This document shows, one piece after another, positions 2,807-27,601 of a stretch of 35,059 nucleotides of DNA; positions within the stretch are counted from its first letter, which is position 1, and every line of letters starts with the position of its first letter. A program made the position numbers and the translations under genes. Below the pieces are notes generated by a model. It had not been told where the DNA came from. It saw only the letters and a program-made list of their open reading frames with translations, and made no database searches. Source of the DNA: Atractiella rhizophila (taxonomy: Eukaryota); the NCBI GenBank assembly GCA_021432655.1, contig MU271654.1:1-35059 (forward strand), given 5' to 3'.

Positions 2807-5036
2807 TCAGTCCCTTACACCACCATGCTCACGTCGGATACAATCCAACATGTCCATATCGTGATCGGCAAGGATCAGTTCACCATCTACCGCATCGTCG
2901 GGTCGCCACAACTCCGGACCTTTATTCACATTCATTGGATATCGCACTTCCCCAATCTTCCCTGCCCAGTCGAAGTCCACTAGCATAACTTGCTTTTCGT
3001 CCCGTGACACCAGGATGTTCGTCTGCCGAACATCGCCGTGAACGTAACTTCGCTGGTGCAGTTCGCTCAGCATCCTTTCAATCGTATCAAGCAGCGTGGA
3101 CGCGGGCGTCGTCAGCATGGTAAGCCCAATGTATTCCTCCTCCGGCAACCAATCCATCACTACCATCTTCCAACCACCAGGGAGCTCTTCAAAACCTCGA
3201 AGCTTTGGCGCAAATCCTAGGGAAGCGCATACCAAATGAGCCTCTTTCGAATACTGGCGAAAAAACTTGACACAAAGGTCCGGCCGTTCTGATTGGTTGC
3301 AGAGGAAGACTAGCTTTTGATCGTGGGGCTGGGATATGTAATCGAAATTTAAGGGATCACCTCCTGCGAGAGGAGTGAACGTTGTTCGATATGGATACAG
3401 TTGGGGTTGGCGTGCTGTCAAATGCGTTGTGTCGGTTTCGACGCCTCGATAGTATTGGTCCAGGAGGTTTACCGTCTTTCTGAATGCCGCAAGGTGGCGA
3501 GCCACCGTCCTCCGTACATTCGTGTCCGTAGGGTGGTGATGCAGTGGGAGAGCAAAGGATAACGTCTGGATGACAGGGCGCAAATTCCACACGGCACCAG
3601 CAAACGAGATATAAGGCCCTATTGTGAATAGCTGAATTGATCAAGTTTCTACTAGGACGAACCAATGCAACTGACCGAATAAAAGGATCAGCATACAGGG
3701 CAACGACGAGTGTTGCAGTCTAACTGCGTGATCTCTGGTCGACTCGAAGTAGTCTAAAATCCCCTGAGCGTACGGCTCGGTACCAGTTTTTCCGATTTCG
3801 TTCTTGAACTCTGCAATAGCGTAGCGCAAGCCTGCCACGGATATATCGCCATCCGTCCTGTACCTATTGATATCGCTCGGGACGAGATGAATACCGTGAG
3901 TTCTGAAAACGCGGCGAATTGCATGTGCACGTCTATCTTCGTTCGGATAGAGGTCTGACATGACGGAGCAGAGCTCTATAGTGAGGTCGCTGTCTTCTTT
4001 GGTCACTTCGTGATTCTCGCAATCGTCGAGAAATGTCCCAAAAACAGCGTGTAAGAGTGTGGGAGGAATCGTTGCAGTGACGATATCAGAGCGGTTGCAA
4101 TAGATCATCGTTTCGGGAGACTTCTGGCGAATCATGAACTCTTCCAACCTCGCCGCTGCAGATGGATTTTCGCTCTTATTTGCCCTAATAAAGGCGGATC
4201 TCCGTGCTCCGACATTATGTTGCTCAAGGGAACGGCCAGGGGATCCACACGTAATCGTACGAAATAATAAATTAGGAGACGAAGGGTCAGTCATCCATCG
4301 GAAGAACAGGTTGATAACGATGGCTCACTAGAGGGAGGGGCATCGGCCACGATGTGAACATGGTCGAAAACTGGTAAGTTATCGAAGAAGAGGCTAGACA
4401 GCAGGTCGACAACAAGCAAAGGCCCATTTTCATCAAACTTTAGCTTCTTCACATCTTCTTCAAAGTCTTTGTGGTAGGGGATGGAGGTCTTGTAGAGGAC
4501 GAGCGAATCTGCTTCCACGTCTCGCAACCGAATGGGCAGGGATACTTTTATCGCATTCTTGAGGTCCGCAACCGTCTTCGTGCTGGGGATCTTGACATGG
4601 AAGAGTTCGTCGAAAATACTACCTCGTATCCAACAATTCAGAGACAAGTCTGGGAAAGCACGATTAACAAGGTGGTAGAAAGAGTGAGAATGAATAGCGC
4701 ACTCGTAGGTTGGATGACGATAACGTTCAGGTGAGTATTGTCTTCGATGGTAAACAACTTCGATAATTCGGTTAGTGGATGCAAATGCAAATGTTCCTTG
4801 TCGTTCAAAGATAGATTCTTGAGCTGATCCTCGAAGCCTTCAGCGGGGAGAGAGACTTTGTAGAGGACAAGCTTTCTTGGGTCCACATCTCCAAACTCAA
4901 GAGACCGGGCTGGGCTGGTCACTATGTCTTCTTTGAGGAGCGCGACGGTTTTCGTGCTGGAGATGTTGACATTGAAGATTTCGTTGACATCAGTACCTCG
5001 AACCCAGCAGTTTAGACGAAGCGTTTTGGGGCTCAT
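2807..5036 (-). CDS. Crinkler (CRN)-like protein: two tandem ubiquitin-like header domains + PD-(D/E)xK REase + kinase-like domain (multi-exon)
   Basis: Header 1 (LNCWVRG..IFNVNIS..TVALLKEDI..LVLYKV..HLNVIV) and header 2 (LNCWIRG..LFHVKIP..TVADLKNAIK..LVLYKT..HVHIVA) are joined in frame by intron 4702-4650. REase motif RTDGDI..AEFKNEIG..EPYAQ. Kinase-like motifs CVKF, APKL..MVVMD, VHGDVRQTNILV, LVDFDWAG..RYP..DHD. The splice junction near 4330-4200 could not be resolved. Confidence 0.85.
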
Positions 5037-5199: not shown

Positions 5200-6097
5200 A
5201 TGTGCGATGCGGCGTTCCTAGCAGCACATGTCAACACCTTAACCCCAGAAACAGAAGCAATCGGGAGAGCCCGAAAGAACCCATTCAGCTCCTTTCCATC
5301 AAAGCCGTTCAATGCTCACGCATCAAACATCGAATACCCTGCGGCGTATCGAGCGGCTGAAAGAGAGACGAGGGGGAAATGGGTTTCCATAAAGATAGAG
5401 AAATTTATGGAGCTGATCTCGACGTGCAGCCATCAGGATGAAGAGACCATTTCCCATCTCCTCAAAACGCGCAAAGAAATCGTGCTTCCAACCGCAGAGC
5501 CGAAACAGTGCGACGTCGTGGTAAGTGTTCTGCCCGATTATGAAAATGGGTTTCATGGATGGGACAGATCGACTGCATGAAGGAGTATCTGGATACTGGA
5601 TGGAAGCAGGTTAACACTTCTGCGAATGTCGACTCAGACATTCCTGATGTCTTCGGCGCTGGTGGCGTCAAACCGGATATCACTCTTTACTCGCCGTCTA
5701 TGCTACCCCTCGAAGGGAGGCCTACCGACATGAAGAAGGCGGAAGTGTTTTGGAAGATTAAAATTGGCGTTACCCCGTTTCGCGATCCTCCAGAAGAGGC
5801 CGACGAAGACGATGCAGAGACAGCGGCAGACGAAAACAACACCGAGAAAATTGATACCGACGGCGACGGCGACGGCGCTGACGAGGGTGATACCTACCAA
5901 GTCGACGCATATGAAGAGGATGCGTACGAAGTCGAGGAATATGAGGATGATGCATACGGGGACAATCCGGCCGCCGACGATACCATCGAAGAACTGGATT
6001 CTCTAAACAACTTTGAAAATCCAGCCGAGAAGGCAGCGGAGATCCGTGGGCAAATAACGATTTACAACGCTGTCATCCAAAGTCTCCAACACAGGAC
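5200..6097 (+). pseudogene. FunK1 (fungal-specific, Pkinase_fungal-type) kinase gene, 5' part, cut by the transposon insertion
   Basis: ATG at 5200 and intron 5521-5567. Motifs VKPDI..PFRDP..(acidic insert)..RGQITIY..QHRT. The reading frame is interrupted exactly at the TSD 6091-6097. Confidence 0.8.
5761..6097 (+). repeat. Copy 1 (left part) of an in-frame ~0.4-kb tandem duplication inside the FunK1 gene; continues at 12389-12438 after the transposon
   Basis: aaattggcgttaccccgtttcgcgatcctcc...ctccaacacaggac closely matches 12439-12805, with scattered SNPs and one 30-bp indel. Confidence 0.9.
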
Positions 6098-6113
6098 CAA
6101 GGGGCGGCCAGAA
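6098..6113 (+). repeat. Left terminal inverted repeat of the P-like element
   Basis: caaggggcggccagaa, the exact reverse complement of 12366-12381. Confidence 0.95.
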
Positions 6114-6360
6114 GCTTAGGCGCTGCCTGACAAGCCTCACACTTAGGGGGTCATTTAGGGGGTCAAACTCTATTTTCAAAAAATATTTTTTGAAAGCTCG
6201 GTCCCGAACCCACTTTCTCGTCTCCGCCCGACCAGAAGTGCGCTTCACTTTTACCTGTCATTAATGTGGTGCAAGTTCATGCAACATGCTGCTGTACTGG
6301 AGTAAAGCATTAGAAATTGTACTGTAAGCAAAGGTGATTAAACGACCGACCCGATGCTGC

Positions 6361-9300
6361 CTATAAACCGCTTCCACCTGCACCGTCATCCTCCTTTGGC
6401 TTTTCCGTCCCCTCTCTCACACTCACTGCTCCTCTCAATCCCATACCCATCGTGATCCCACAACCTCTTCCTCGTCGTGAGCCACCCCGAAGCACCTTCT
6501 CTCCCCTCAATCTCCTGAGCTCATTCTCTGTTCCCTTTCTACGCTTTTTCTCCCACTCCAGCACCTCCATAATCATCCCCTGATATCGGTCATGAGATTG
6601 TCCTAGGCGCAAGATGTTATGGCATGCATTCGGAATGGATGCAACCCGGTCTGTCTTCTCCTCACCTTTGTGAGCGTGCTGCCAATGCTCCGAGAGAGTG
6701 TAGGTCCACAGGGTGAGCTTGCAATTGCCGCCTGGGCAAGGAAAGGGGTGGTTTGTGACAGGGTTGGAGTCATAGTAGCTGCGGGCTTTCTGGATGGAAA
6801 AGTTATCTAGTTCTTTGAGGACAGGACAGTCGGATAGGTGAAACTTGGGATCTTTGCTGTTTCCCTTCGTTAAGGCCGTCGTTGTATGCCCGAACGATCC
6901 ACATGCACCACATGTGTAGTCCTTTGCCTGATGTAGTTTTGTTAAATTCAAGATCAAGAGAAGCAGAAGCTGAGGTTTGAACTCACAGTGCGGTTGTGAG
7001 GTTCAACAGATACATCAACTAAAGGCAGTTCCAGCTCTCCATCCCATACTGGATCAGGTGGAAGCCCTGCCGAACGTTGATGTTCCAGGTGGATTTTCAG
7101 GACTTGATTGAACGCAATATGGCCCACAACATCGATCGCATTGTCTCGGAGAATGAGGTCACATCCAGCAGCAGGGCACGTCATGGTGCCGGCAAGTGAG
7201 GTCCTGACCAGTTGTTGCAGATGAGGTGTTGTAAAGGCAACATGCCCAGCTAAAGCATCTATATCTATCAGGACAGCAACCAGCAAACGATACAATAGAA
7301 GACTGACCAATATTTGTATAAGGAAAGCCCTTTGGAGGTGCTTTGAAATGGATCATCTCCTTCTTCTTCCGGTTCCTGAAGATAGCTTCCAGTGTCTCAA
7401 CACATGCACATAAAGCTTCATGTTGGAACTCGAGCCACTCCAGTCCACTTCCCACCGGTGTCAATGTGCTTCCTTCCCCTCCGACAAACACCACCAGCTG
7501 GCTGCTAATATCCCATGGCGAGTCACAAAGAGATTGAGGATACCGCCAGACCCAGCGGGTGGAAGCCACGCCATCCCAAAGATCCACAAGCGAGATTCCT
7601 CTCACTCTCAAAGTCACATTCCTCGTACTTTGACCAAGGTCTTTCTTAGCGATTTGCACACCACTTCGGCCATCTTGTGATGTATCCTGAAGCTGGAGAA
7701 GGAGTAGGGATATCACAGTGCCAGTGTGAGCAAGGGTGGCCACTACTTCTTGGGGCATGAGGGTAGATGATGGGTCTACCGGGTTGGCTTGAACAAGAGC
7801 TGAATGGTTGGGTTGGAGAGCGGCCCAAGCACCATGCGCATTTGCGCTCGGTATCCCTGCTACACGTTCTCCTCGGTTCTTGGAAAACGTCCGATAGTTT
7901 TGGTTCAAAACTTCTCGAGAAAGCCACTTGATGTGGACACGGTCGCCTTCTGGATCTAGCCGTGTGTGGAGGTAGAGGTCATCATGCTTTACATGACGCC
8001 GGAATGTTGGATGTTGAGGCACAGAGCGTCCATGGATGACTTGAGGCTCAGGAGTAGAAAATGTTGATGGGATGGTGGACAATTGTTGCTGTCTGACAGA
8101 ACTTTCTGCCTCAGAGGGTTCTAGTACATAAGCAGGCTTTGATAAGCAAATGGTACAAGATGGACACGGATTGACGGACCACATTGATCTCGTACGGAAT
8201 GCTTTCGTTCGTCCTCTTCTACTGCATGAACCAACAGCTGTAGACGATCAGCTTCCGAAATGCCCGGTAAGTTGGTGACATCGACATCAGCCTCATTCCG
8301 TAAGAAGAGGGCAGCCTCTGGTGGCATCTCTGATGAGGTAGATTTGTTGGATTCATTCTGTCGTGTTTCGTATCTTTGATTAAGGTCAGCCTCGAGGTGT
8401 GCAGCTGCTGGCAGTGGTTGATTGATGGACGACCCCTCAGAGGAATAGTCGTCGGTGGCGAGCTTCTGGTCACGTCCAATGATATCGCTAAACGGCTTGG
8501 ATTCAAATTCGGAGAGGTCAGACGAAAGCCCAGGGATATTTAACTCCTCCACGAAGCCACATGCTTTCTGAACACCCTTTTCCCATGATCCCTGTGGATC
8601 CTGGAAGGAACTCCCAAACACTTCCCCCACCCAGACCCTTACGCTGATGTGATCAAGATCCTCATCCTCTGGCCTAACATCACGGCGCTTATCTCTTGGC
8701 TTGAGTTCTGGATTGGATGCAAGGATATCACAGACTTCAAAGGCAGCAACTGATGAGATGGCAGCTTGGAGCATGTCAAAACTGCAGTTGCCACGGACAA
8801 CTGTACGCAGCACTCCAAAAAGTTGCTCGAGGCGATCTGTCCCAAGCTGGATAAGAAGGACTTCAAGGGTTGGATCCAGACGTCGTGAGCGTGCAGCATA
8901 GACCCAGGCACCTGTTGCGGTTGCAAGAAAGTCGTGGAGGATCTGCCACGGAATAAATCTCGATTTGGCACTTCGGAAGCCAATAGTCATAAGCACCATT
9001 GCCTCCGTCAGTTGTTCAAGCTGCTCGGTAAGAGAAAGTCGGACATCAAAAAATGGTGAAATGAGGGCACAGTGAAGTATAGTTCCGATGAATTGATAAG
9101 CCTTGGTCTCCATTGAACGATTGCGGGTGGTATCGAAAGGCTCATTGACATGTCGCAGTTCAGTTGTACGCTTTGCCAAGGTGTATGCGCGAGGTACATT
9201 CATCTTGTCTTTATCGAAAAAGAGCAATTCCCATTGACGGACCGTGAAGTCGGGAAAGCATGCTTGAAGATGGGCAAGCAGGGTCATCGGATAGACTGTC

Positions 9301-12185
9301 ACTTGACCGACCATGATCCCACCCTTCCGTTCAAGCCAGCTACACATCCTCTTAACCAAATGCAGAGGATCAAAGACCATCACTACCCCGTAGGCATCAC
9401 AGCAATAGTTGAATCCAACGAGAGCCGCAGGCAAATAAAGGTGGAAGTCCGGAAAGACAGCATGAAGAGTTCTCCTACTGAAACGGATATCGCCAGCTTC
9501 ACGGCGCGTGCTGTCACCATCACTAGCCAATGTCCACAACTCACTGCCAGGATGGTGATTCAGCAGCCAGCCATGCAGAGCAGAAATATGAATTTCGAAA
9601 GTGTCCAGCTCTTCAGTGACAGAAGGTCCGGTCCTGCAGGTCCCCGATAGCGAAAGAGGCCGTGGGGAATACTCTACCAATACCATATGTTAGCTCAGTT
9701 GCAAATTAGCAAGAAACCTCACCCTCCCTGCCATACCGGCCGTACACCCAATACGAGAGTAAACTTGCCGCATGGATCTCCTCCTTGGCTAGCCCCTCTT
9801 GTAACTCCCACAGCACACTCTCATCTTCAACTACTTTATTCCAATCCTTCGCATGCGCGCAGATACCAACAACCGACATTGTGTTGATATCCACTCCTGG
9901 GGTCTGATTGAGGACAGTTTCATCAGTGAACATGCCGAATCCTGTAGGTCTCGTAACCTTTCCACCAGGTTGAAATTCGTACTGCCCCATTGGTATCTGG
10001 TTCCCCCGTGACCCAATTATTCTATCAGATCCTCCACTATTCTCTCTCTCTCTCTCTTCCTCCAGAGCCTCTTCTAATTCCCTCTCCGCATCTCGTCCGA
10101 TTCGATGAAAGGTATCCAGATTATGGACCACTTCTTCTCTCTTCACAAGGTCAATTGATATCCAAAGCTTCATTCCTGAAACAAAACGCTTGATCGAGCG
10201 GGCGGATGGTAAGCCACAGGCAACGTGAAGGATTGAAAGAAGCGTTTGTGACCCAAGGCGGTAGACAAGCAGCCCCACGAGGTATTCTCGATAGAGGTAG
10301 GAATAGGCCTTTATTCGTCCTTGTTCGGCAGCAGAAATCTGTGCGAGCGTTCGTTCCAGAGAATATTTCCGCATGATGCAATTGAGCAGAAGGGGATTAA
10401 CGCGAGGATAAGCGGTGCTCGCAATCCGATGCAGAACTTCGTTTTGAAGTTTGATCTTCGCTTCCTGCGATTCAATGCGGCTGTCACGGTAACTGACCTA
10501 AATCCACCCTCAGCTGCATTCTTGCAGAGTAAGATCAGTTAATACCTTGGAATGTAAGCGGACAGCTTTCTTTCGTAATACCTTCAGGGATTCGTGTTGC
10601 TGATCCGGTGTCTTGTAATCCCAGTTCAAATACTCGAGTTCTTTCGCCCCCTTCCTGTTTGCAGACAATTTGATCCTTTCGACATTCGCATCGTGGCTTA
10701 GCTCTCGACAGCTTTGGCAGACAAATCCTCTTATCGTATTCTTCTCCGAGCCAAAACGGGCACAGGTTGTCGAGTGGAGAAATATCCCAACGCCATCACT
10801 AGTGAAGGACCATCGACGTCGCTTGAGTTTGGAGACATAGAGAGGTGGGAAAGATCGAGCTGGAGTGGTGAGGGGGTGTGCAGCAGGATAGGCGTATCCT
10901 TCACACACTAGTGGAGTCCTTGGTGTCCAGTTGGCTGGCTCATCGTACCGAACCACTTCCCAATCTGCTCCCTCTACATCTCCATGGTCATCCTCGCCTT
11001 GAGTTTCTCCACCTCCGCTCACATCCTCCATGATTGTTGGAAGCCCAGAGGAACGAAGCAGGGCGGGTTCGATCAGATGGTCAAGGGATCGTTTGCGGTG
11101 GCTGGTAGACAGCTTATCGTATGGGGAGGGATTAGAAGTTCCTTGACTGTCAAGAAAGTCTTCTGGGAGAGGAGCTTGTTCGAAGACTGAGATTGAGGGC
11201 AAGGGTTGCAAGTGCCTAAGGACTGCTGCCTCTTGTTGTTCTCGTTGGTTTCGAAGCCATTGGTTCTTACGGCATTGTGACTTTCCTTCATGGTTTTTGA
11301 CCTGAGCTCCTCCAATGCCAACGCCACACGACGGACAAATCTTCCTCGCATAGACTCGCCGCTGAACACCACTCAGTCATTAGATATGGAGGCTGAAACC
11401 GGACACACCTTCGTGCCATAATACAGCTCCTCAGGTATATCCTTCCCCGCCCTTGCCAATCTCTTCCTCTTCTGTCTTCTCCCATCCCTATCACGCTCTT
11501 CATCCGTCTTCCGCTGCAAAGTATAGCATCCAACACCCACTATCTTCTTTAAACATTCTTGCACTCCACCTTCACCATCATTCACCTGTGCGGTAGTTCC
11601 GGTAGTGGCTCGGAGTGACGGAGAGCGTGAGTGAGCGCGGTCAGGCATGGATGCAGCGGTAGCCATCCCATCAGAGGGAGGCACAGTTCGTGCAGAGTTG
11701 ATACCAGAACCTAGAGATCCTCCTTCTCGCCCTGAACCCATTAACCCCTCCCCTAATGCCATAAGGCAGTCCTCCTCCTCTCCACGCAACACTCCTGGGA
11801 TTCTTTCACTCCGGTCTGCATCAGACAGCGAATCCCACTGTCTTCCCCACCTCTTCTTTCGTTTTCGTGGTGAAGAAGATGGGGAAAGGCGCTCGGACAC
11901 TCGTCGTGTCATACCTGGACGTGCCATTTGAGCAGACAGATGATCCTCAGGTGGTCCATTAGAGGAAGACAGCGGCGGTGATGCAAAAGGGGATATTGAG
12001 GTCAGAGCGGTGAAAGGAGGGTCATCGAAACAGAGAGAACGGGATGGAGGCGAAGTGTAATTGATGCTGCAATCGTTCCGGACCTTGGTGCGAAGGGGGG
12101 ACATTGACAACGAGGGAAAGCTGGAGGAAGATGGGCTTCGAGGTTCGAAGAGCTGTCGTTCAGGATTACCGTCATTCGGATTCAT
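6361..12185 (-). CDS. Large P-element/THAP9-like DDE transposase, predicted 7 exons, ~1,837 aa
   Basis: Exons 12185-11409, 11361-10546, 10497-9723, 9673-8180, 8120-7308, 7258-6987 and 6927-6361 are joined by GT-AG introns of 47-59 nt, all in frame (5,514 nt). P-type motifs in order: LPSARSIKR (HTH), MFTDE (D1), LASDGD (D2), FDPLHLVKR (DxxH), DKMNVPRA, GTDRLEQLFG (E). Confidence 0.85.
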
Positions 12186-12365
12186 AAGCGTAGTAAAAAT
12201 GTCGTAATAAGGTGCGTTAAGGGTCGTTAAGTGTCGTTAACAGATGCTTTCAGCAGCGATATGTGAGCTTTATCTGTTGTGCGAGATAGGAAATGATGTG
12301 GGGGTCAGACCCCAAAGGCAGACACACAAAGCCCCTCAAGATGGCTTGTTAGACTCATTTTAAAG

Positions 12366-12381
12366 TTCTGGCCGCCCCTTG
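12366..12381 (-). repeat. Right terminal inverted repeat of the P-like element
   Basis: ttctggccgccccttg, followed immediately by the TSD acaggac. Confidence 0.95.
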
Positions 12382-12438
12382 ACAGGACTCGCGTCTTTTC
12401 CATTTATGTTCGTGGAAAAACAGCTCGCCTTCTTTGCC

Positions 12439-12856
12439 AAATTGGCGTTGTCCCGTTTCGTGATCCTCCCGAAGAGGCCGACGACGACGATGCAGCGGCA
12501 GCGGCAGACGAAAACAACACCGAGAAAATCGATACCGAAGGCGACGGCGACGGCGCTGACAAGGGTGATAGCTACCAAGTCGACGCAAGCGAAGATGATG
12601 CATACGAAGTCGACGCATATGAAGAGGATGCGTACGAAGTCGAGGAATATGAGGATGATGCATACAGGGACAATCCGGCCGCCGACGATACAATCGCAGA
12701 ACTGGATTCTCTAAACAACTTTGAAAATCCAGCTGAGAAGGCGGCGGAGCTCCGTGGGCAAATAACGATTTACAACGCTGTCATCCAAAGTCTCCAACAC
12801 AGGACTCGCGTCTTTTCCATTTATGTTCGCGGAAAAACAGCTCGCCTTCTTTGCCA
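12439..12856 (+). repeat. Copy 2 of the intragenic FunK1 tandem duplication (transposon-free copy)
   Basis: Starts aaattggcgttgtcccgtttcgtgatcc and ends ttctttgcca. It contains the un-inserted target site. Confidence 0.9.
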
Positions 12857-13075
12857 TTCTCGCGCTGGCACACTCGTCACCACGCCTTTCAACTACAACG
12901 AGGACTCATATCTGCATCGATTTTTGTTTCGGTACACGCGCGCTACCAGAACCCAACGGGGGCACGACGATACTTACAGGAAACCGAGCAACCCTGTAGA
13001 GGATAGAGAAGCGAGGCTCAACCTTGGGATCAAGGGTGACGACGAGCTTTACGTCGTTGACATCGGTTCATCCAG

Positions 13076-13145: not shown

Positions 13146-14611
13146 TATTTCCTGTCGGTCGTGGTACAAAATGCTTCTACGCCTATTGCCCTGGTCGAGA
13201 TGAACTTGTGCTTTTGAAGGACACCTGGAGGAAGATGCAGGACGAAAAGGAGGGAAACACGCTTCGAACGTTGAACCTTGCAAATATCCCTAACATCCCG
13301 ACTGTTCTCGACGAGTGTGATATCGAGGGCAACTTCCAAATGATCGAGGCACCTTTCAGCCAAGCCATGCAACATTATGTTCAGGTTACTGACAAGATCG
13401 GACGCCCTCTTTCTTCGTTCAAGTCTAGCTGGGAAATGGTCAATGCTGTTTGTGACGCTATCTTAGGCATGTTTTTCTTCTGTTTTATTGCGCCACTGAC
13501 CGGAACACAGCTCACAAACTCGCTTGGGAGATGACCAATATTTTACACCGGGACATTTCATCGGGAAATATCCTGATTTATGATCTACCAAGATCTGACG
13601 GCGAGCCGGCAAGATCTCAAGGGCTTCTGATAGATTGGGAGATGGCAAAAACGGAGTCATCAAATTCGTTACCGCGGACGACTGAACGTACTGTACGTTC
13701 GCTCCTGTTGTCAATGCGAAGCGTTTCTGAACTGTGGCACATTAAGGGTACCCATCAATTCATCGCTCTCGAACTATTGAATCCAGGTCGCATCAAGCAT
13801 GGACCCCAGCACGACCTCGAATCATTCATCTATGTCTTACTTTGGATCACAATACGGCACGCCAAATGTGGACCATCTATGGGAGAGGATGACAAGCGTA
13901 GCGCGCTCGAATTTTTCGACAGGAAGAACACGATGGCAAAAAGTCGCGCAGCGAAAAAAGAGCTTCTCACGTCCTCCTCTCGCGTGACACTCCTAGCTCT
14001 AGAGACGTCAGGACTGCACGACGCTCTTGAGGCAATCTGGCTGCCGTTCCAAGCTCATATGCAAGCTATCCGACTTGGAAAGGCCGATCAACTCAACAGC
14101 AGCATCTTGACGCATTCTGTTTTGATCGAAAAGCTTTCATCCAGCCTTGAAAGTATCGATTGGAAACAGACAATGGATCCTGCTATAATTTACGTTATGC
14201 TGAAGCGAAAGAGGAAGGATGCAGACGAGGATGGAGAAAGGGAGAGGAAGCGATTACGGAGCCGTGCTGGAAGAAGTGGTGAGAATCGCGGTGGACAAAG
14301 GCTTGCCAGGATTGTCCAGGCTGAGAAGAGTGCTGCAAGTGGTCGAACGAAAAGAAGGAGTGGGGTGAGAGAGGTAGAGGACAGAGGTGGGAGAACTGGA
14401 TTGAGGAGTCAAGGATGAACGATCGTGACAGCGCCTTCGCTTCTCACATTCAATATGATTTTGATGTATTTCATTCTGCAAGCCATCCACAGCTTTACTC
14501 CTCCTACATTTCTTGTTGATGATTCTATCGTATCATCAAGTTCGTCACAACATTAGTGTGCTTGAACGAGCCAAGGACGACGCTTAGCTGCAACGATTGA
14601 TGTGCTTTCAG

Positions 14612-25438: not shown

Positions 25439-26683
25439 CTAGAACAGATCTTCTTCCTCGACGCTTCGAGATTGTGTTTCCAGACCATCAATGCCAATCC
25501 CGTTAGCAACACCTAGCTGTTCCCACGTCGCATCCATGATTTGTCCCCATTCGAAGTTCTCGTTCCTCGTCTTTTCTGCAATTTCCTTGGAAGCGATGGT
25601 GACTGGGATGGATATGGAAGACGATAGCTGCTGTTGCGACAGTGTGGCGGTCATGATCGGTTCAACAGGAGCGGTGTGAGAATGAGTTGTCGTTGATGGA
25701 ATGCTCAAGTGACCAACAGAAGAGGAAACCGTAGAGGAACAAGGCTCGAAGTCGCCGTTTAAGGAAAAGTTGGTTGGGGCAGTGGAGGCTGTGGACGGAT
25801 TTGAGAAGAAGGACAAGTCGGAGGACGAAGGAAGACTGAAGGCGGTAGAGTCGGGTGGCACCACGGAATACGAGGCAATGGCTTTTTTCTTCCTCGGGCG
25901 TGCTTCTTCTTGAATAGAAACTCGTCTGCCCCTCTTCTTTGATTGAGTGACGATGCTGCAGTTTCCCTTCCTCCTCAGATACACCTCCGCGCTCGAGTCT
26001 TCACTAGCTAGAAACTGTCCCAAATCTGCACCGCCAACGTTCAATCCCCGTAGATCCTCGTCTTCATCCACATTGTAACCCCTTGACAGGAGCCCAGACA
26101 GTGATGCGTCATTATATCTCTCGGCTTCCTCTTGCGCCTTTTGAGACCAAGCTGCTTTAGCCTTTGATGACATCTTCTCCCATATCTTCCCCACAACCTG
26201 GCTCACGCGAGCTTGATCCACTTGTCCGTTTGAAGTCAGCAGTTTCGCCTTGTTCTTCTCCACGAATCCGCCATCCATGAGATGCTTCTTGAACAAGAAG
26301 AACGAGTTCAGGGGTTTCCCGCTCTTCTCATCTTGCTTCTTCTTCTTCTTCTGTTTCCTCGTAAGCGGCGGCCTGGGAAGGGGGATTGGCTTCTCTTCTT
26401 GCTCAAAAAACGACGGTGGCGCGGAGTCTGGAGCTTCGTACGGCGTGGAGATGTCGTAATAGGAAGCCGAGGTTGGGGCATCGTAATATGGGGTAGAGGC
26501 GGAGGAAGGGTGAGCGTGGGTGTGAAAAGGGGTAGGCGGCGAAGGTGTAGTTTGGGATGGTGTTGTCGAAGCATATCCAACTGGTTGTTCAGGGGGGATG
26601 TATGTGGGATATGGATGTCCTTGCATCGTACCCTGAGGCGGGAGTGGGGCAGAGTAGGTAGCAGAGGTCGGTTCACGAAATGA
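25439..26683 (-). CDS. HMG-box (MATA/SOX-type) transcription factor, terminal exon
   Basis: KPLNSFFLFKK..QARVSQVVGKIWEKMSSKAKAAWSQKAQEEAERY. The exon is open from the acceptor at 26684. Intron 26735-26684 links it to in-frame upstream exons, so the true start is probably further upstream. Confidence 0.85.
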   Translation of the reverse strand, partial: SFREPTSATYSAPLPPQGTMQGHPYPTYIPPEQPVGYASTTPSQTTPSPPTPFHTHAHPSSASTPYYDAPTSASYYDISTPYEAPDSAPPSFFEQEEKPIPLPRPPLTRKQKKKKKQDEKSGKPLNSFFLFKKHLMDGGFVEKNKAKLLTSNGQVDQARVSQVVGKIWEKMSSKAKAAWSQKAQEEAERYNDASLSGLLSRGYNVDEDEDLRGLNVGGADLGQFLASEDSSAEVYLRRKGNCSIVTQSKKRGRRVSIQEEARPRKKKAIASYSVVPPDSTAFSLPSSSDLSFFSNPSTASTAPTNFSLNGDFEPCSSTVSSSVGHLSIPSTTTHSHTAPVEPIMTATLSQQQLSSSISIPVTIASKEIAEKTRNENFEWGQIMDATWEQLGVANGIGIDGLETQSRSVEEEDLF

Positions 26684-27601
26684 CTTTGCAAAGAAGCCTC
26701 ATTCAGGCAGGGAAGAGAACAAGGGAAAGACTTACCTCAATTGCCATTTCGCTGAGACGGAAGGGTTGTTGCCGATGCGGATACTGATGTTCTTGAAAAC
26801 GGTGGTGCTGATGATGGTTTGCAAGCCGCCGCGGTGGTGGTTTGTGGCGTGGGACGCAAAAGGGATAAGGGACCTTGTTAAAATGTCAATGCTGCGCAAC
26901 ATCCCTTGTGGAAAAGCGACGGACCTGAGTGCCTCTCCCTTGTTGTTCTCCATGAGAGTATAACTACCCGGACTCATTAGGTCGGATAAAGGCGAAATCA
27001 GACGACATACAGAATGGAAGCTGTGTCCACTATACGTGAGCTCCTTCATTGTTCGGTCTAAGTCTGCTGCTTCAATTGTTGGAGACCAGCAGAAACATAC
27101 CTCATGATCTGGTACAGCGTGCACCTGCTCGCATCGGATTATCAGCATAGCATAAGTGACTGGGAGAAGGAAGGAATCAGTACATTCTTCGACCCCTGCT
27201 GATCCCCCAGTGAGTCACGTAAGTCTTTCTCCTCGCCAATAAACGGATAGGTGCACACCAGGTGAGGGTCAAATACACCGCTTTTCTATAGATACTCATG
27301 CGTTAGAAGCCTGGCCCTAGCTCTGCATTAATTTAATGGAAGCGACAAACCTGCTCTAACGGTTGATAGACATGGCCTGACGCCAGCGTATCAGGCACAA
27401 TCTCTCCATTCTCGTTCTCGATCCATCGAGTCTAATCGCGCCACATGTCATCAGTTTCCACTTCAGCCAGAGGATGCAGCAGAGAGGATGCGCGCAGGTG
27501 GAGCGAATGGGACAGGAAATCACCTTATGCATCACTGGTGCTGACCCTATGTCCATCGTGGCCAAGTCAGTCCTTCCACCAGCCTTCACCATCCGAACAA
27601 A

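Follow-up and report, generated by a model that had tools for sequence, protein, structure and literature searches.

Does a row of open reading frames in a fungal contig encode one very large transposase, and to which superfamily would such an enzyme belong? The question is raised by a locus in contig MU271654.1 of Atractiella rhizophila (assembly GCA_021432655.1), whose positions 1 to 35,059 on the forward strand form the window analysed here. On the minus strand, between 6361 and 12236, lie seven successive open reading frame pieces, which an earlier interpretation made from the letters alone (the sequence-only reading) had joined into a single P-type transposase; all seven were present. We consider it very probable that 6098–12381 is an autonomous cut-and-paste transposon, sitting in a FunK1 kinase gene, from a P-superfamily branch that is very divergent and spread across the Agaricomycetes, and that its single gene is transcribed and spliced to give a transposase of about 1,834 amino acids (aa).

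Excision of the six GT..AG intervals proposed in the sequence-only reading (47, 48, 49, 59, 49 and 59 nt) left 5,514 nt, or 1,837 codons with a single terminal stop. Introns of 47–59 nt are of the usual size in basidiomycetes. Among the runs searched (X1–X8), X8, whose kind is not on record, contained 0.85 of the element's sampled words, and its contig record 20 (4,812 nt) matches the window, with 0 mismatches or gaps, between 6740 (exon 7) and 11871 (exon 1). This contig is without all six introns, skipping 6927–6985/6986, 7250–7307, 8121–8179, 9674–9722, 10498–10545 (cut +2) and 11362–11408. Conceptual splicing and the intron-less contig together confirm that the six short introns keep one frame, and run X8 shows expression as the fully spliced form. 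Runs X1–X7 were typed 'RNA?' by guess, and the parts of the element left uncovered in X1, X2 and X6 carry no information. The junctions of introns 1 and 4 are present in X6, and X1 has those of introns 5 and 6 together with a joint at intron 3 that is shifted by one letter. A 14-nt loose end at 10499 in X1 equals the 3' end of exon 2, which suggests that intron 2 was spliced there as well. X1 and X6 come from other coded organisms and studies than X8.

Five of the six introns had been placed exactly, as had the donor of intron 5 at 7307; the acceptor of intron 5 had not. In both X8 and X1 it lies at 7250 and not 7259 (joint 7249->7308), so that the intron has 58 nt, stays in frame and leaves three residues fewer, and across the corrected junction the family profile alignment is gapless. 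The product of about 1,837 aa that had been proposed, with 5,514 nt filling about 88% of the element, is thereby corrected to a coding sequence of 5,505 nt (1,834 codons, one stop), or 87.6% of 6,284 bp. A profile of 58 homologues, none of them from the window, aligned in a one-sequence search as two collinear blocks, aa 270–663 and 711–1744 (E 8.8e-164), which cross the exon 2/3, 3/4, 4/5, 5/6 and 6/7 junctions. Because a single contig bridges all six junctions and the homologue profile is collinear over five of them, the seven pieces are one seven-exon minus-strand gene with a single spliced product of 1,834 aa, as had been claimed.

The public gene model of the locus, P0001 (8180–11100), has 786 aa and is 100% identical to the locus. 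It begins at an internal Met of exon 2 and, by way of a splice absent from the long X8 contig, stops early in exon 4; from these two points we conclude that the annotation cuts the gene short at both ends. An alternative is that intron retention or premature polyadenylation, of the sort known from the P repressor isoform, also, or mainly, yields shorter products from the locus: a transposase that stops near exon 4, and the C-terminal part as a protein of its own. The 1,834-aa form would then be minor. A stop at 8121 lies just inside intron 4, where retention would end the protein past the core, P0001 itself ends in exon 4, and contigs cannot rank isoforms. We nevertheless regard this as unlikely. 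Separate mRNAs, with an end after 8121, had been named in advance as the sign of more than one product; the sole long contig has every coding intron removed and runs unbroken between exon 1 and exon 7, without the exon 4 splice of P0001. In addition, where homologues carry the C-terminal Cys/His cluster of exons 6–7 (44 of 150), it is always in the same polypeptide, past the core.

The limits of the element were read from its flanks. The left flank ends in ...CAACACAGGAC and the right one starts with ACAGGACTCGCG, and some 400 bp further right (~12790–12820) the same host sequence occurs without interruption, reading CAACACAGGACTCGCG. CAAGG would fit a putative terminal motif of P elements, CANRG. 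This uninterrupted site sets the element at 6098–12381 with a 7-bp target site duplication (TSD). In an X1 contig the match to the element stops exactly at 6098, with unrelated letters beyond; this change of flank fixes the left end independently and reveals a copy at another locus in another organism. Judging from its sequence, the gene in which the element is inserted encodes a FunK1-type fungal kinase (PF17667, E 2.3e-21, open reading frame 13456–14418). Within the 35-kb window there is one copy of the element, and a metagenome scan with a 24-nt pattern from the left end gave 0 matches. The X8 joint 6090->12382 was dropped as evidence of excision, its shorter side having 23 letters; it may equally be an uninterrupted paralogous or allelic site.

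The host FunK1 sequence is doubled around the insertion, in the order A (5761–6097), element, B (12382–12450), A' (12439–12805) and B' (12799–12867), with 89–93% identity. On either side of 12439 the X8 contigs break off, and their long loose ends lead from 'upstream of A' into A' and from B into 'downstream of B'. The B->A' junction may be a tandem duplication or an assembly join of two haplotypes or paralogues.

The assignment to the P superfamily was supported by fold and by profile. We modelled the window's own aa 370–1143 with AlphaFold (P0001 plus its alignment), a check that the sequence-only reading had suggested, and obtained a core model with a predicted local distance difference test score (pLDDT) of 82.1 and a predicted template modelling score (pTM) of 0.74. 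In Foldseek its best match was Drosophila P transposase (E 2.2e-10), followed by RAG1 (E 1.5e-4). VIA-align against 6p5a_A gave Z 24.8 with a root mean square deviation (rmsd) of 4.8 over 396 of 442 residues, compared with 12.2 for Transib, 10.7 for RAG1 and 7.7 for Hermes; on these scores hAT and Transib/RAG1 were rejected as closest relatives. The P-like part, model residues 190–738, corresponds to protein aa 559–1107. A search independent of Foldseek with the model of homologue P0054 (1,126 aa; pLDDT 85.3, pTM 0.83) again returned P transposase, at Z 21.5 versus 7.4 for the next family. At E<0.01 the sole match in the PDB to a 100-member family profile was Drosophila P transposase (E 0.0062), in three collinear pieces that set 'DE' on D230, 'D..H..KR' on residues 339–348 and 'D..E..FG..R' on D528/E531. 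The language-model neighbours of exon 4 carried TNP-like_GBD, RNaseH_N and RNaseH_C (score 0.96). Altogether, the models support a core with a P-transposase-like helix-turn-helix (HTH), split RNase H fold and alpha-helical insertion domain.

The candidate catalytic residues are D723 in exon 3 and D841 and E1072 in exon 4, with D891-x-x-H894 between the latter two, in keeping with the earlier placing of the RNase H core in exons 3–4. Across 100 sequences, the columns of the catalytic DDE triad and of the D(2)H motif show either no variation or conservation of at least 90%, the second Asp, D841, being placed by conservation only. HMMER sets the first Asp, the D(2)H motif and the Glu on P D230, residues 339–342 and E531. 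D1069, the equivalent of P D528, is also at least 90% conserved; among the guanosine triphosphate (GTP)-binding residues given in PMC7776569, it was the sole one that aligned. A DDE plus D(2)H signature is reported to characterise the P superfamily, as is a TSD of 7 bp (Galileo; PMC4168063). For TSD length the superfamily has 7–8 bp, and the one insertion here has 7 bp, ACAGGAC. The Kyakuja-Dileera-Zisupton (KDZ) group was rejected, since no Pfam KDZ transposase or CxC match was found in the seven exon translations or in 37 homologues.

The sequence-only reading had also pointed to extra N- and C-terminal parts, and the two collinear blocks of the 58-homologue alignment show these additions to be conserved family-wide. 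At the N-terminal side, a C-x2-C...H...C (C2HC-type) finger spans aa 268–289 (11272–11337) and stands at the extreme N-terminus in long homologues. A second Cys/His module in exon 2 (C412...C474-x2-C477) is followed in the core model by a helix of about 48 residues and then the HTH. For the C-terminal side the fold was taken from the model of P0054 and not from the window's own protein. Past the core this model folds confidently, into a beta-rich domain (residues 713–851) and two beta-beta-alpha units like C2H2 fingers. The barrel in it has weak Royal-family matches: the MRG701 chromodomain (Z 5.2), the PHF19 Tudor domain (Z 4.5, rmsd 1.8, 56 of 57 residues) and the SMN Tudor domain (Z 4.3). 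A PHD finger ends at least one long homologue, P0043 (E 6.8e-9), and is matched weakly in a second; the window protein is without a terminal PHD finger. An atlas search with the C-terminal part of P0054 returned unnamed Basidiomycota clusters only.

Several points weigh against our overall interpretation. In Pfam, none of the seven exon translations matches at E<=0.001 (the best noise was zf-CCHC_6 in exon 7, E 0.0021), and none of 37 homologues reaches the gathering scores of the P/THAP9 families (PF21787/8/9, PF12017, PF12596), only two of the 37 giving PF21787 (TNP-like_RNaseH_N) hits, below threshold (E 8e-4 and 7e-3). The THAP domain (PF05485) was found neither in exons 1–2 (E<=1) nor in the 37 homologues (E<=0.01). 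The structural alignments show 11–14% identity to P transposase. The intron-less X8 contig could in principle stem from a processed DNA copy. For the 259 aa of exon 1 the homologues offer no equivalent and hence no support; the reading frame of this exon stays open through 287 codons, and the X8 contig, which covers 11409–11871, connects it with exon 2. The start was taken at the first ATG (12185), and the true start could be a later one. The length of the TSD comes from one insertion. The Tudor- or chromo-like barrel, weak at Z 4.2–5.2 and belonging to homologue P0054 rather than to the window protein, is best treated as a lead. Transposase activity, any use of GTP and the functions proposed for the extra domains are hypothetical.

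From some of these points one could also argue for a separate superfamily that shares with P only the general transposase fold of RNase H plus an alpha-helical insertion. No Pfam P/THAP9 family is reached at threshold and no THAP was found, identity is low, the profile-to-sequence match stands at E 0.0062 only, and the added domains have no counterpart in P or THAP9. We think this quite unlikely: the Z scores of 24.8 and 21.5 are about twice those of the next transposase family and cover HTH, RNase H and insertion domain together, the HMMER match has three collinear segments, one each at D230, at the D(2)H motif and at D528/E531, and the 7-bp TSD fits Galileo. We therefore rate the lineage as a divergent part of the P superfamily whose N-terminus is not of the THAP type and whose C-terminal module is large and conserved, which agrees with the P-type call made earlier, on the strength of fold and profile and not of Pfam.

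Traces of other copies were found in the runs. A joint 6766->12035, present in both X1 and X8, skips 5,268 nt with 3-nt microhomology. It points to a derivative of about 1 kb, internally deleted and shifted in frame, which retains both ends and is common to two coded organisms. Depth in X8 is several-fold higher across the element ends than over the body. At 11814–11822 a variant with 7 nt missing in total, whose frame would shift, makes up 607 of 824 of the X8 depth over exon 1. Because this shorter variant dominates the exon 1 depth, several variants of the element are represented in X8, many of them probably non-coding. The copy in the window is apparently intact in frame, terminal inverted repeats (TIRs) and TSD. 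That it is a domesticated or dead transposase gene instead of a mobile element, as the one copy in the window and a mobility deduced from sequence might suggest, is very improbable given both TIRs and the TSD, the 1,834 uninterrupted codons, the copy with another flank in the X1 organism, and the deletion derivative with the same breakpoints in two runs, with depth higher at the ends than in the body.

The family is large: a HMMER scan with exon 4 returned 760 cluster representatives at E<=1e-3, of which 425 reach E<=1e-10. Among the homologues listed, six are 1,669–1,740 aa long, and three long named ones are 'hypothetical proteins' of Mycena species. A metagenome scan with the exon 4 protein as query gave 145 pattern matches, 0 of them confirmed. 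No description of P-like elements in Agaricomycetes was found in the literature searched, RepBase and subscription journals lying outside the search.

The closest comparison is with the Drosophila P system. P transposase has 751 aa, so the earlier estimate of about twice the canonical size holds for a protein of 1,834 aa. The two enzymes share an HTH, a split RNase H fold and an all-alpha insertion domain in the same order (PDB 6p5a / 6pe2 for P transposase), and these parts superpose. Both also have a DE motif where the first Asp stands, a D(2)H motif, and the catalytic Glu in a D-x-x-E. In each element the gene has introns and the TIRs are short, and both have derivatives with internal deletions. 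Unlike P transposase, the protein described here has other Cys/His modules and no THAP was found in it, and about 700 aa with a beta-barrel and C2H2-like fingers follow its core. The P element has an 8-bp TSD and 31-bp TIRs according to PMC7776569, whereas the element here has 7 bp and 16 bp. It also shares traits with other members of the superfamily: Galileo has a 7-bp TSD with the DDE and D(2)H signature (PMC4168063), and zebrafish Pdre-THAP9 has a short TIR, of 13 bp (PMC7776569). The transposases of Galileo, 1360 and Pdre-THAP9, however, have a THAP domain and match THAP9/P models, of which the window's does neither, and their hosts are animals rather than fungi.

In fungi, the P elements of RepBase are from Pucciniales and Allomyces only, and a survey of fungal cut-and-paste elements with Pfam P domains counted 11 P copies, as 'single occurrences' (Muszewska et al. 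2017, PMC5751038). Set beside these by description, our element is alike in host kingdom and superfamily, and unlike in that its family of 760 clusters escapes the Pfam P models. Dada of Laccaria bicolor, likewise from a basidiomycete, resembles it in its DDE transposase, which is large, encoded with introns and bordered by zinc fingers at either side, in its DxxH motif and in TSDs of 6–7 bp; its description (PMC3706591) gives it no TIRs, insertion in small-RNA genes and, placed after the second D and before DxxH, an exonuclease of the DEDDy type. The element here has TIRs, a kinase gene as target and, in the model, an alpha-helical P-like insertion domain with no exonuclease-like domain, and Dada was rejected on these grounds, set apart by that description.

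The integrases of chromoviruses bear a chromodomain, a small Royal-family-like barrel C-terminal to a DDE enzyme. They may offer a working analogy for a C-terminal barrel on such an enzyme; the enzyme family is unrelated, and the barrel match is weak here.

From these parts a mechanism can be proposed. By analogy with the P transposase structure (PMC7776569), binding of the element ends would fall to the HTH and the zinc modules at the N-terminal side instead of to THAP, and the GGGGGTCA motifs near the ends are candidate sites for this. The 35-kb window has three matches to the motif, each no more than 85 nt from an end of the element; as a number this is not significant, 3 being reached in 11 of 100 shuffles. 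The left subterminal region also holds a perfect, A/T-rich 22-nt palindrome at 6174–6195. The long helix might pair transposase subunits as a dimer, and the DDE site would excise the element and join it to target phosphates with a 7-bp stagger. The C-terminal beta-barrel and C2H2-like fingers, with the PHD finger in some relatives, could tether the transpososome to DNA or chromatin, a role that we put forward tentatively from the modelled fold. Internally deleted copies would be mobilised in trans. A bolder version is conceivable and in our view doubtful: the element would be the first characterised member of a large, unnamed, Basidiomycota-wide P clade missed by domain models and surveys, in which other zinc modules replaced THAP and a chromatin-reader-like C-terminal module (Tudor/chromo-like barrel, C2H2-like fingers, PHD finger in some) steers integration to marked chromatin, and it would be active now.

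P elements are a classic of transposon biology and are regarded as nearly absent from higher fungi. The element shows that a P-type core is present in a large family, of 760 sequence clusters. The family escaped classification because its sequences are too divergent for the existing models and because gene callers shorten the seven-exon gene, as in the 786-aa model. Here a P-type enzyme occurs naturally in fusion with different modules for binding DNA and possibly chromatin. The apparently intact, expressed element is a candidate for studies of activity and GTP dependence outside animals, and the corrected gene model would improve the annotation of transposable elements in mushroom genomes. 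The coordinates are collected in the table below.

Table. Coordinates of the transposon, its ends and its gene within the window, with the basis or content of each feature (UTR, untranslated region; C/H, Cys/His).
Feature	Coordinates	Strand	Basis or content
Whole transposon, 6,284 bp, gene on minus strand	6098..12381	-	TIR pair, flank comparison, X1 contig flank change at 6098
Left TIR, CAAGGGGCGGCCAGAA, 16 bp perfect; 39 nt at 74%	6098..6113	+	repeat comparison
Right TIR	12366..12381	-	repeat comparison
TSD ACAGGAC, left copy	6091..6097	.	uninterrupted paralogous or allelic site (~12790-12820) has ACAGGAC once
TSD ACAGGAC, right copy	12382..12388	.	X8 joint 6090->12382, 7 letters fitting either side
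Two subterminal GGGGGTCA motifs	6146..6165	+	third at 12300-12307; candidate transposase-binding sites, lead only
Exon 1 coding sequence, aa 1-259	11409..12185	-	S/R/P/G-rich, basic stretches RKRKKR, RRQKRKR; start inferred
Intron 1, 47 nt	11362..11408	-	X8 and X6 joints
Exon 2, aa 260-531	10546..11361	-	C2HC-type finger, second Cys/His module
Intron 2, 48 nt	10498..10545	-	X8 joint; X1 loose end at 10499
Exon 3, aa 532-789	9723..10497	-	long helix, HTH, first part of RNase H fold, D723 (9922-9924)
Intron 3, 49 nt	9674..9722	-	X8 joint; X1 shifted joint 9674->9725
Exon 4, aa 790-1287	8180..9673	-	D841 (9519-9521), D891(2)H894 (9360-9371), all-alpha insertion domain, D1069/E1072 (8826-8837)
Intron 4, 59 nt	8121..8179	-	X8 and X6 joints
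Exon 5, aa 1288-1558	7308..8120	-	linker and beta-rich domain (~aa 1412-1555), by homology to P0054 model
Intron 5, 58 nt	7250..7307	-	X8 and X1 joints 7249->7308; sequence-only reading gave 7259-7307
Exon 6, aa 1559-1646	6987..7249	-	corrected start 7249; first C/H finger from C1583
Intron 6, 59 nt	6928..6986	-	X8 and X1 joints
Exon 7 and stop, aa 1647-1834	6361..6927	-	CxxC knuckle, C2H2-like finger (C1710...H1727-x4-H1732), basic tail
Seventh intron, GT-AG, 54 nt, in 3' UTR, 11 nt past stop codon	6297..6350	-	X8 and X1 joints 6296->6351; sequence

Elsewhere in the window, an open reading frame at 25439–26698 on the minus strand carries an HMG box (PF00505, E 1.1e-6), and one at 2807–3640, also on the minus strand, matches protein kinases weakly. 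Both, along with the FunK1 gene, fit an Agaricomycete genomic context.

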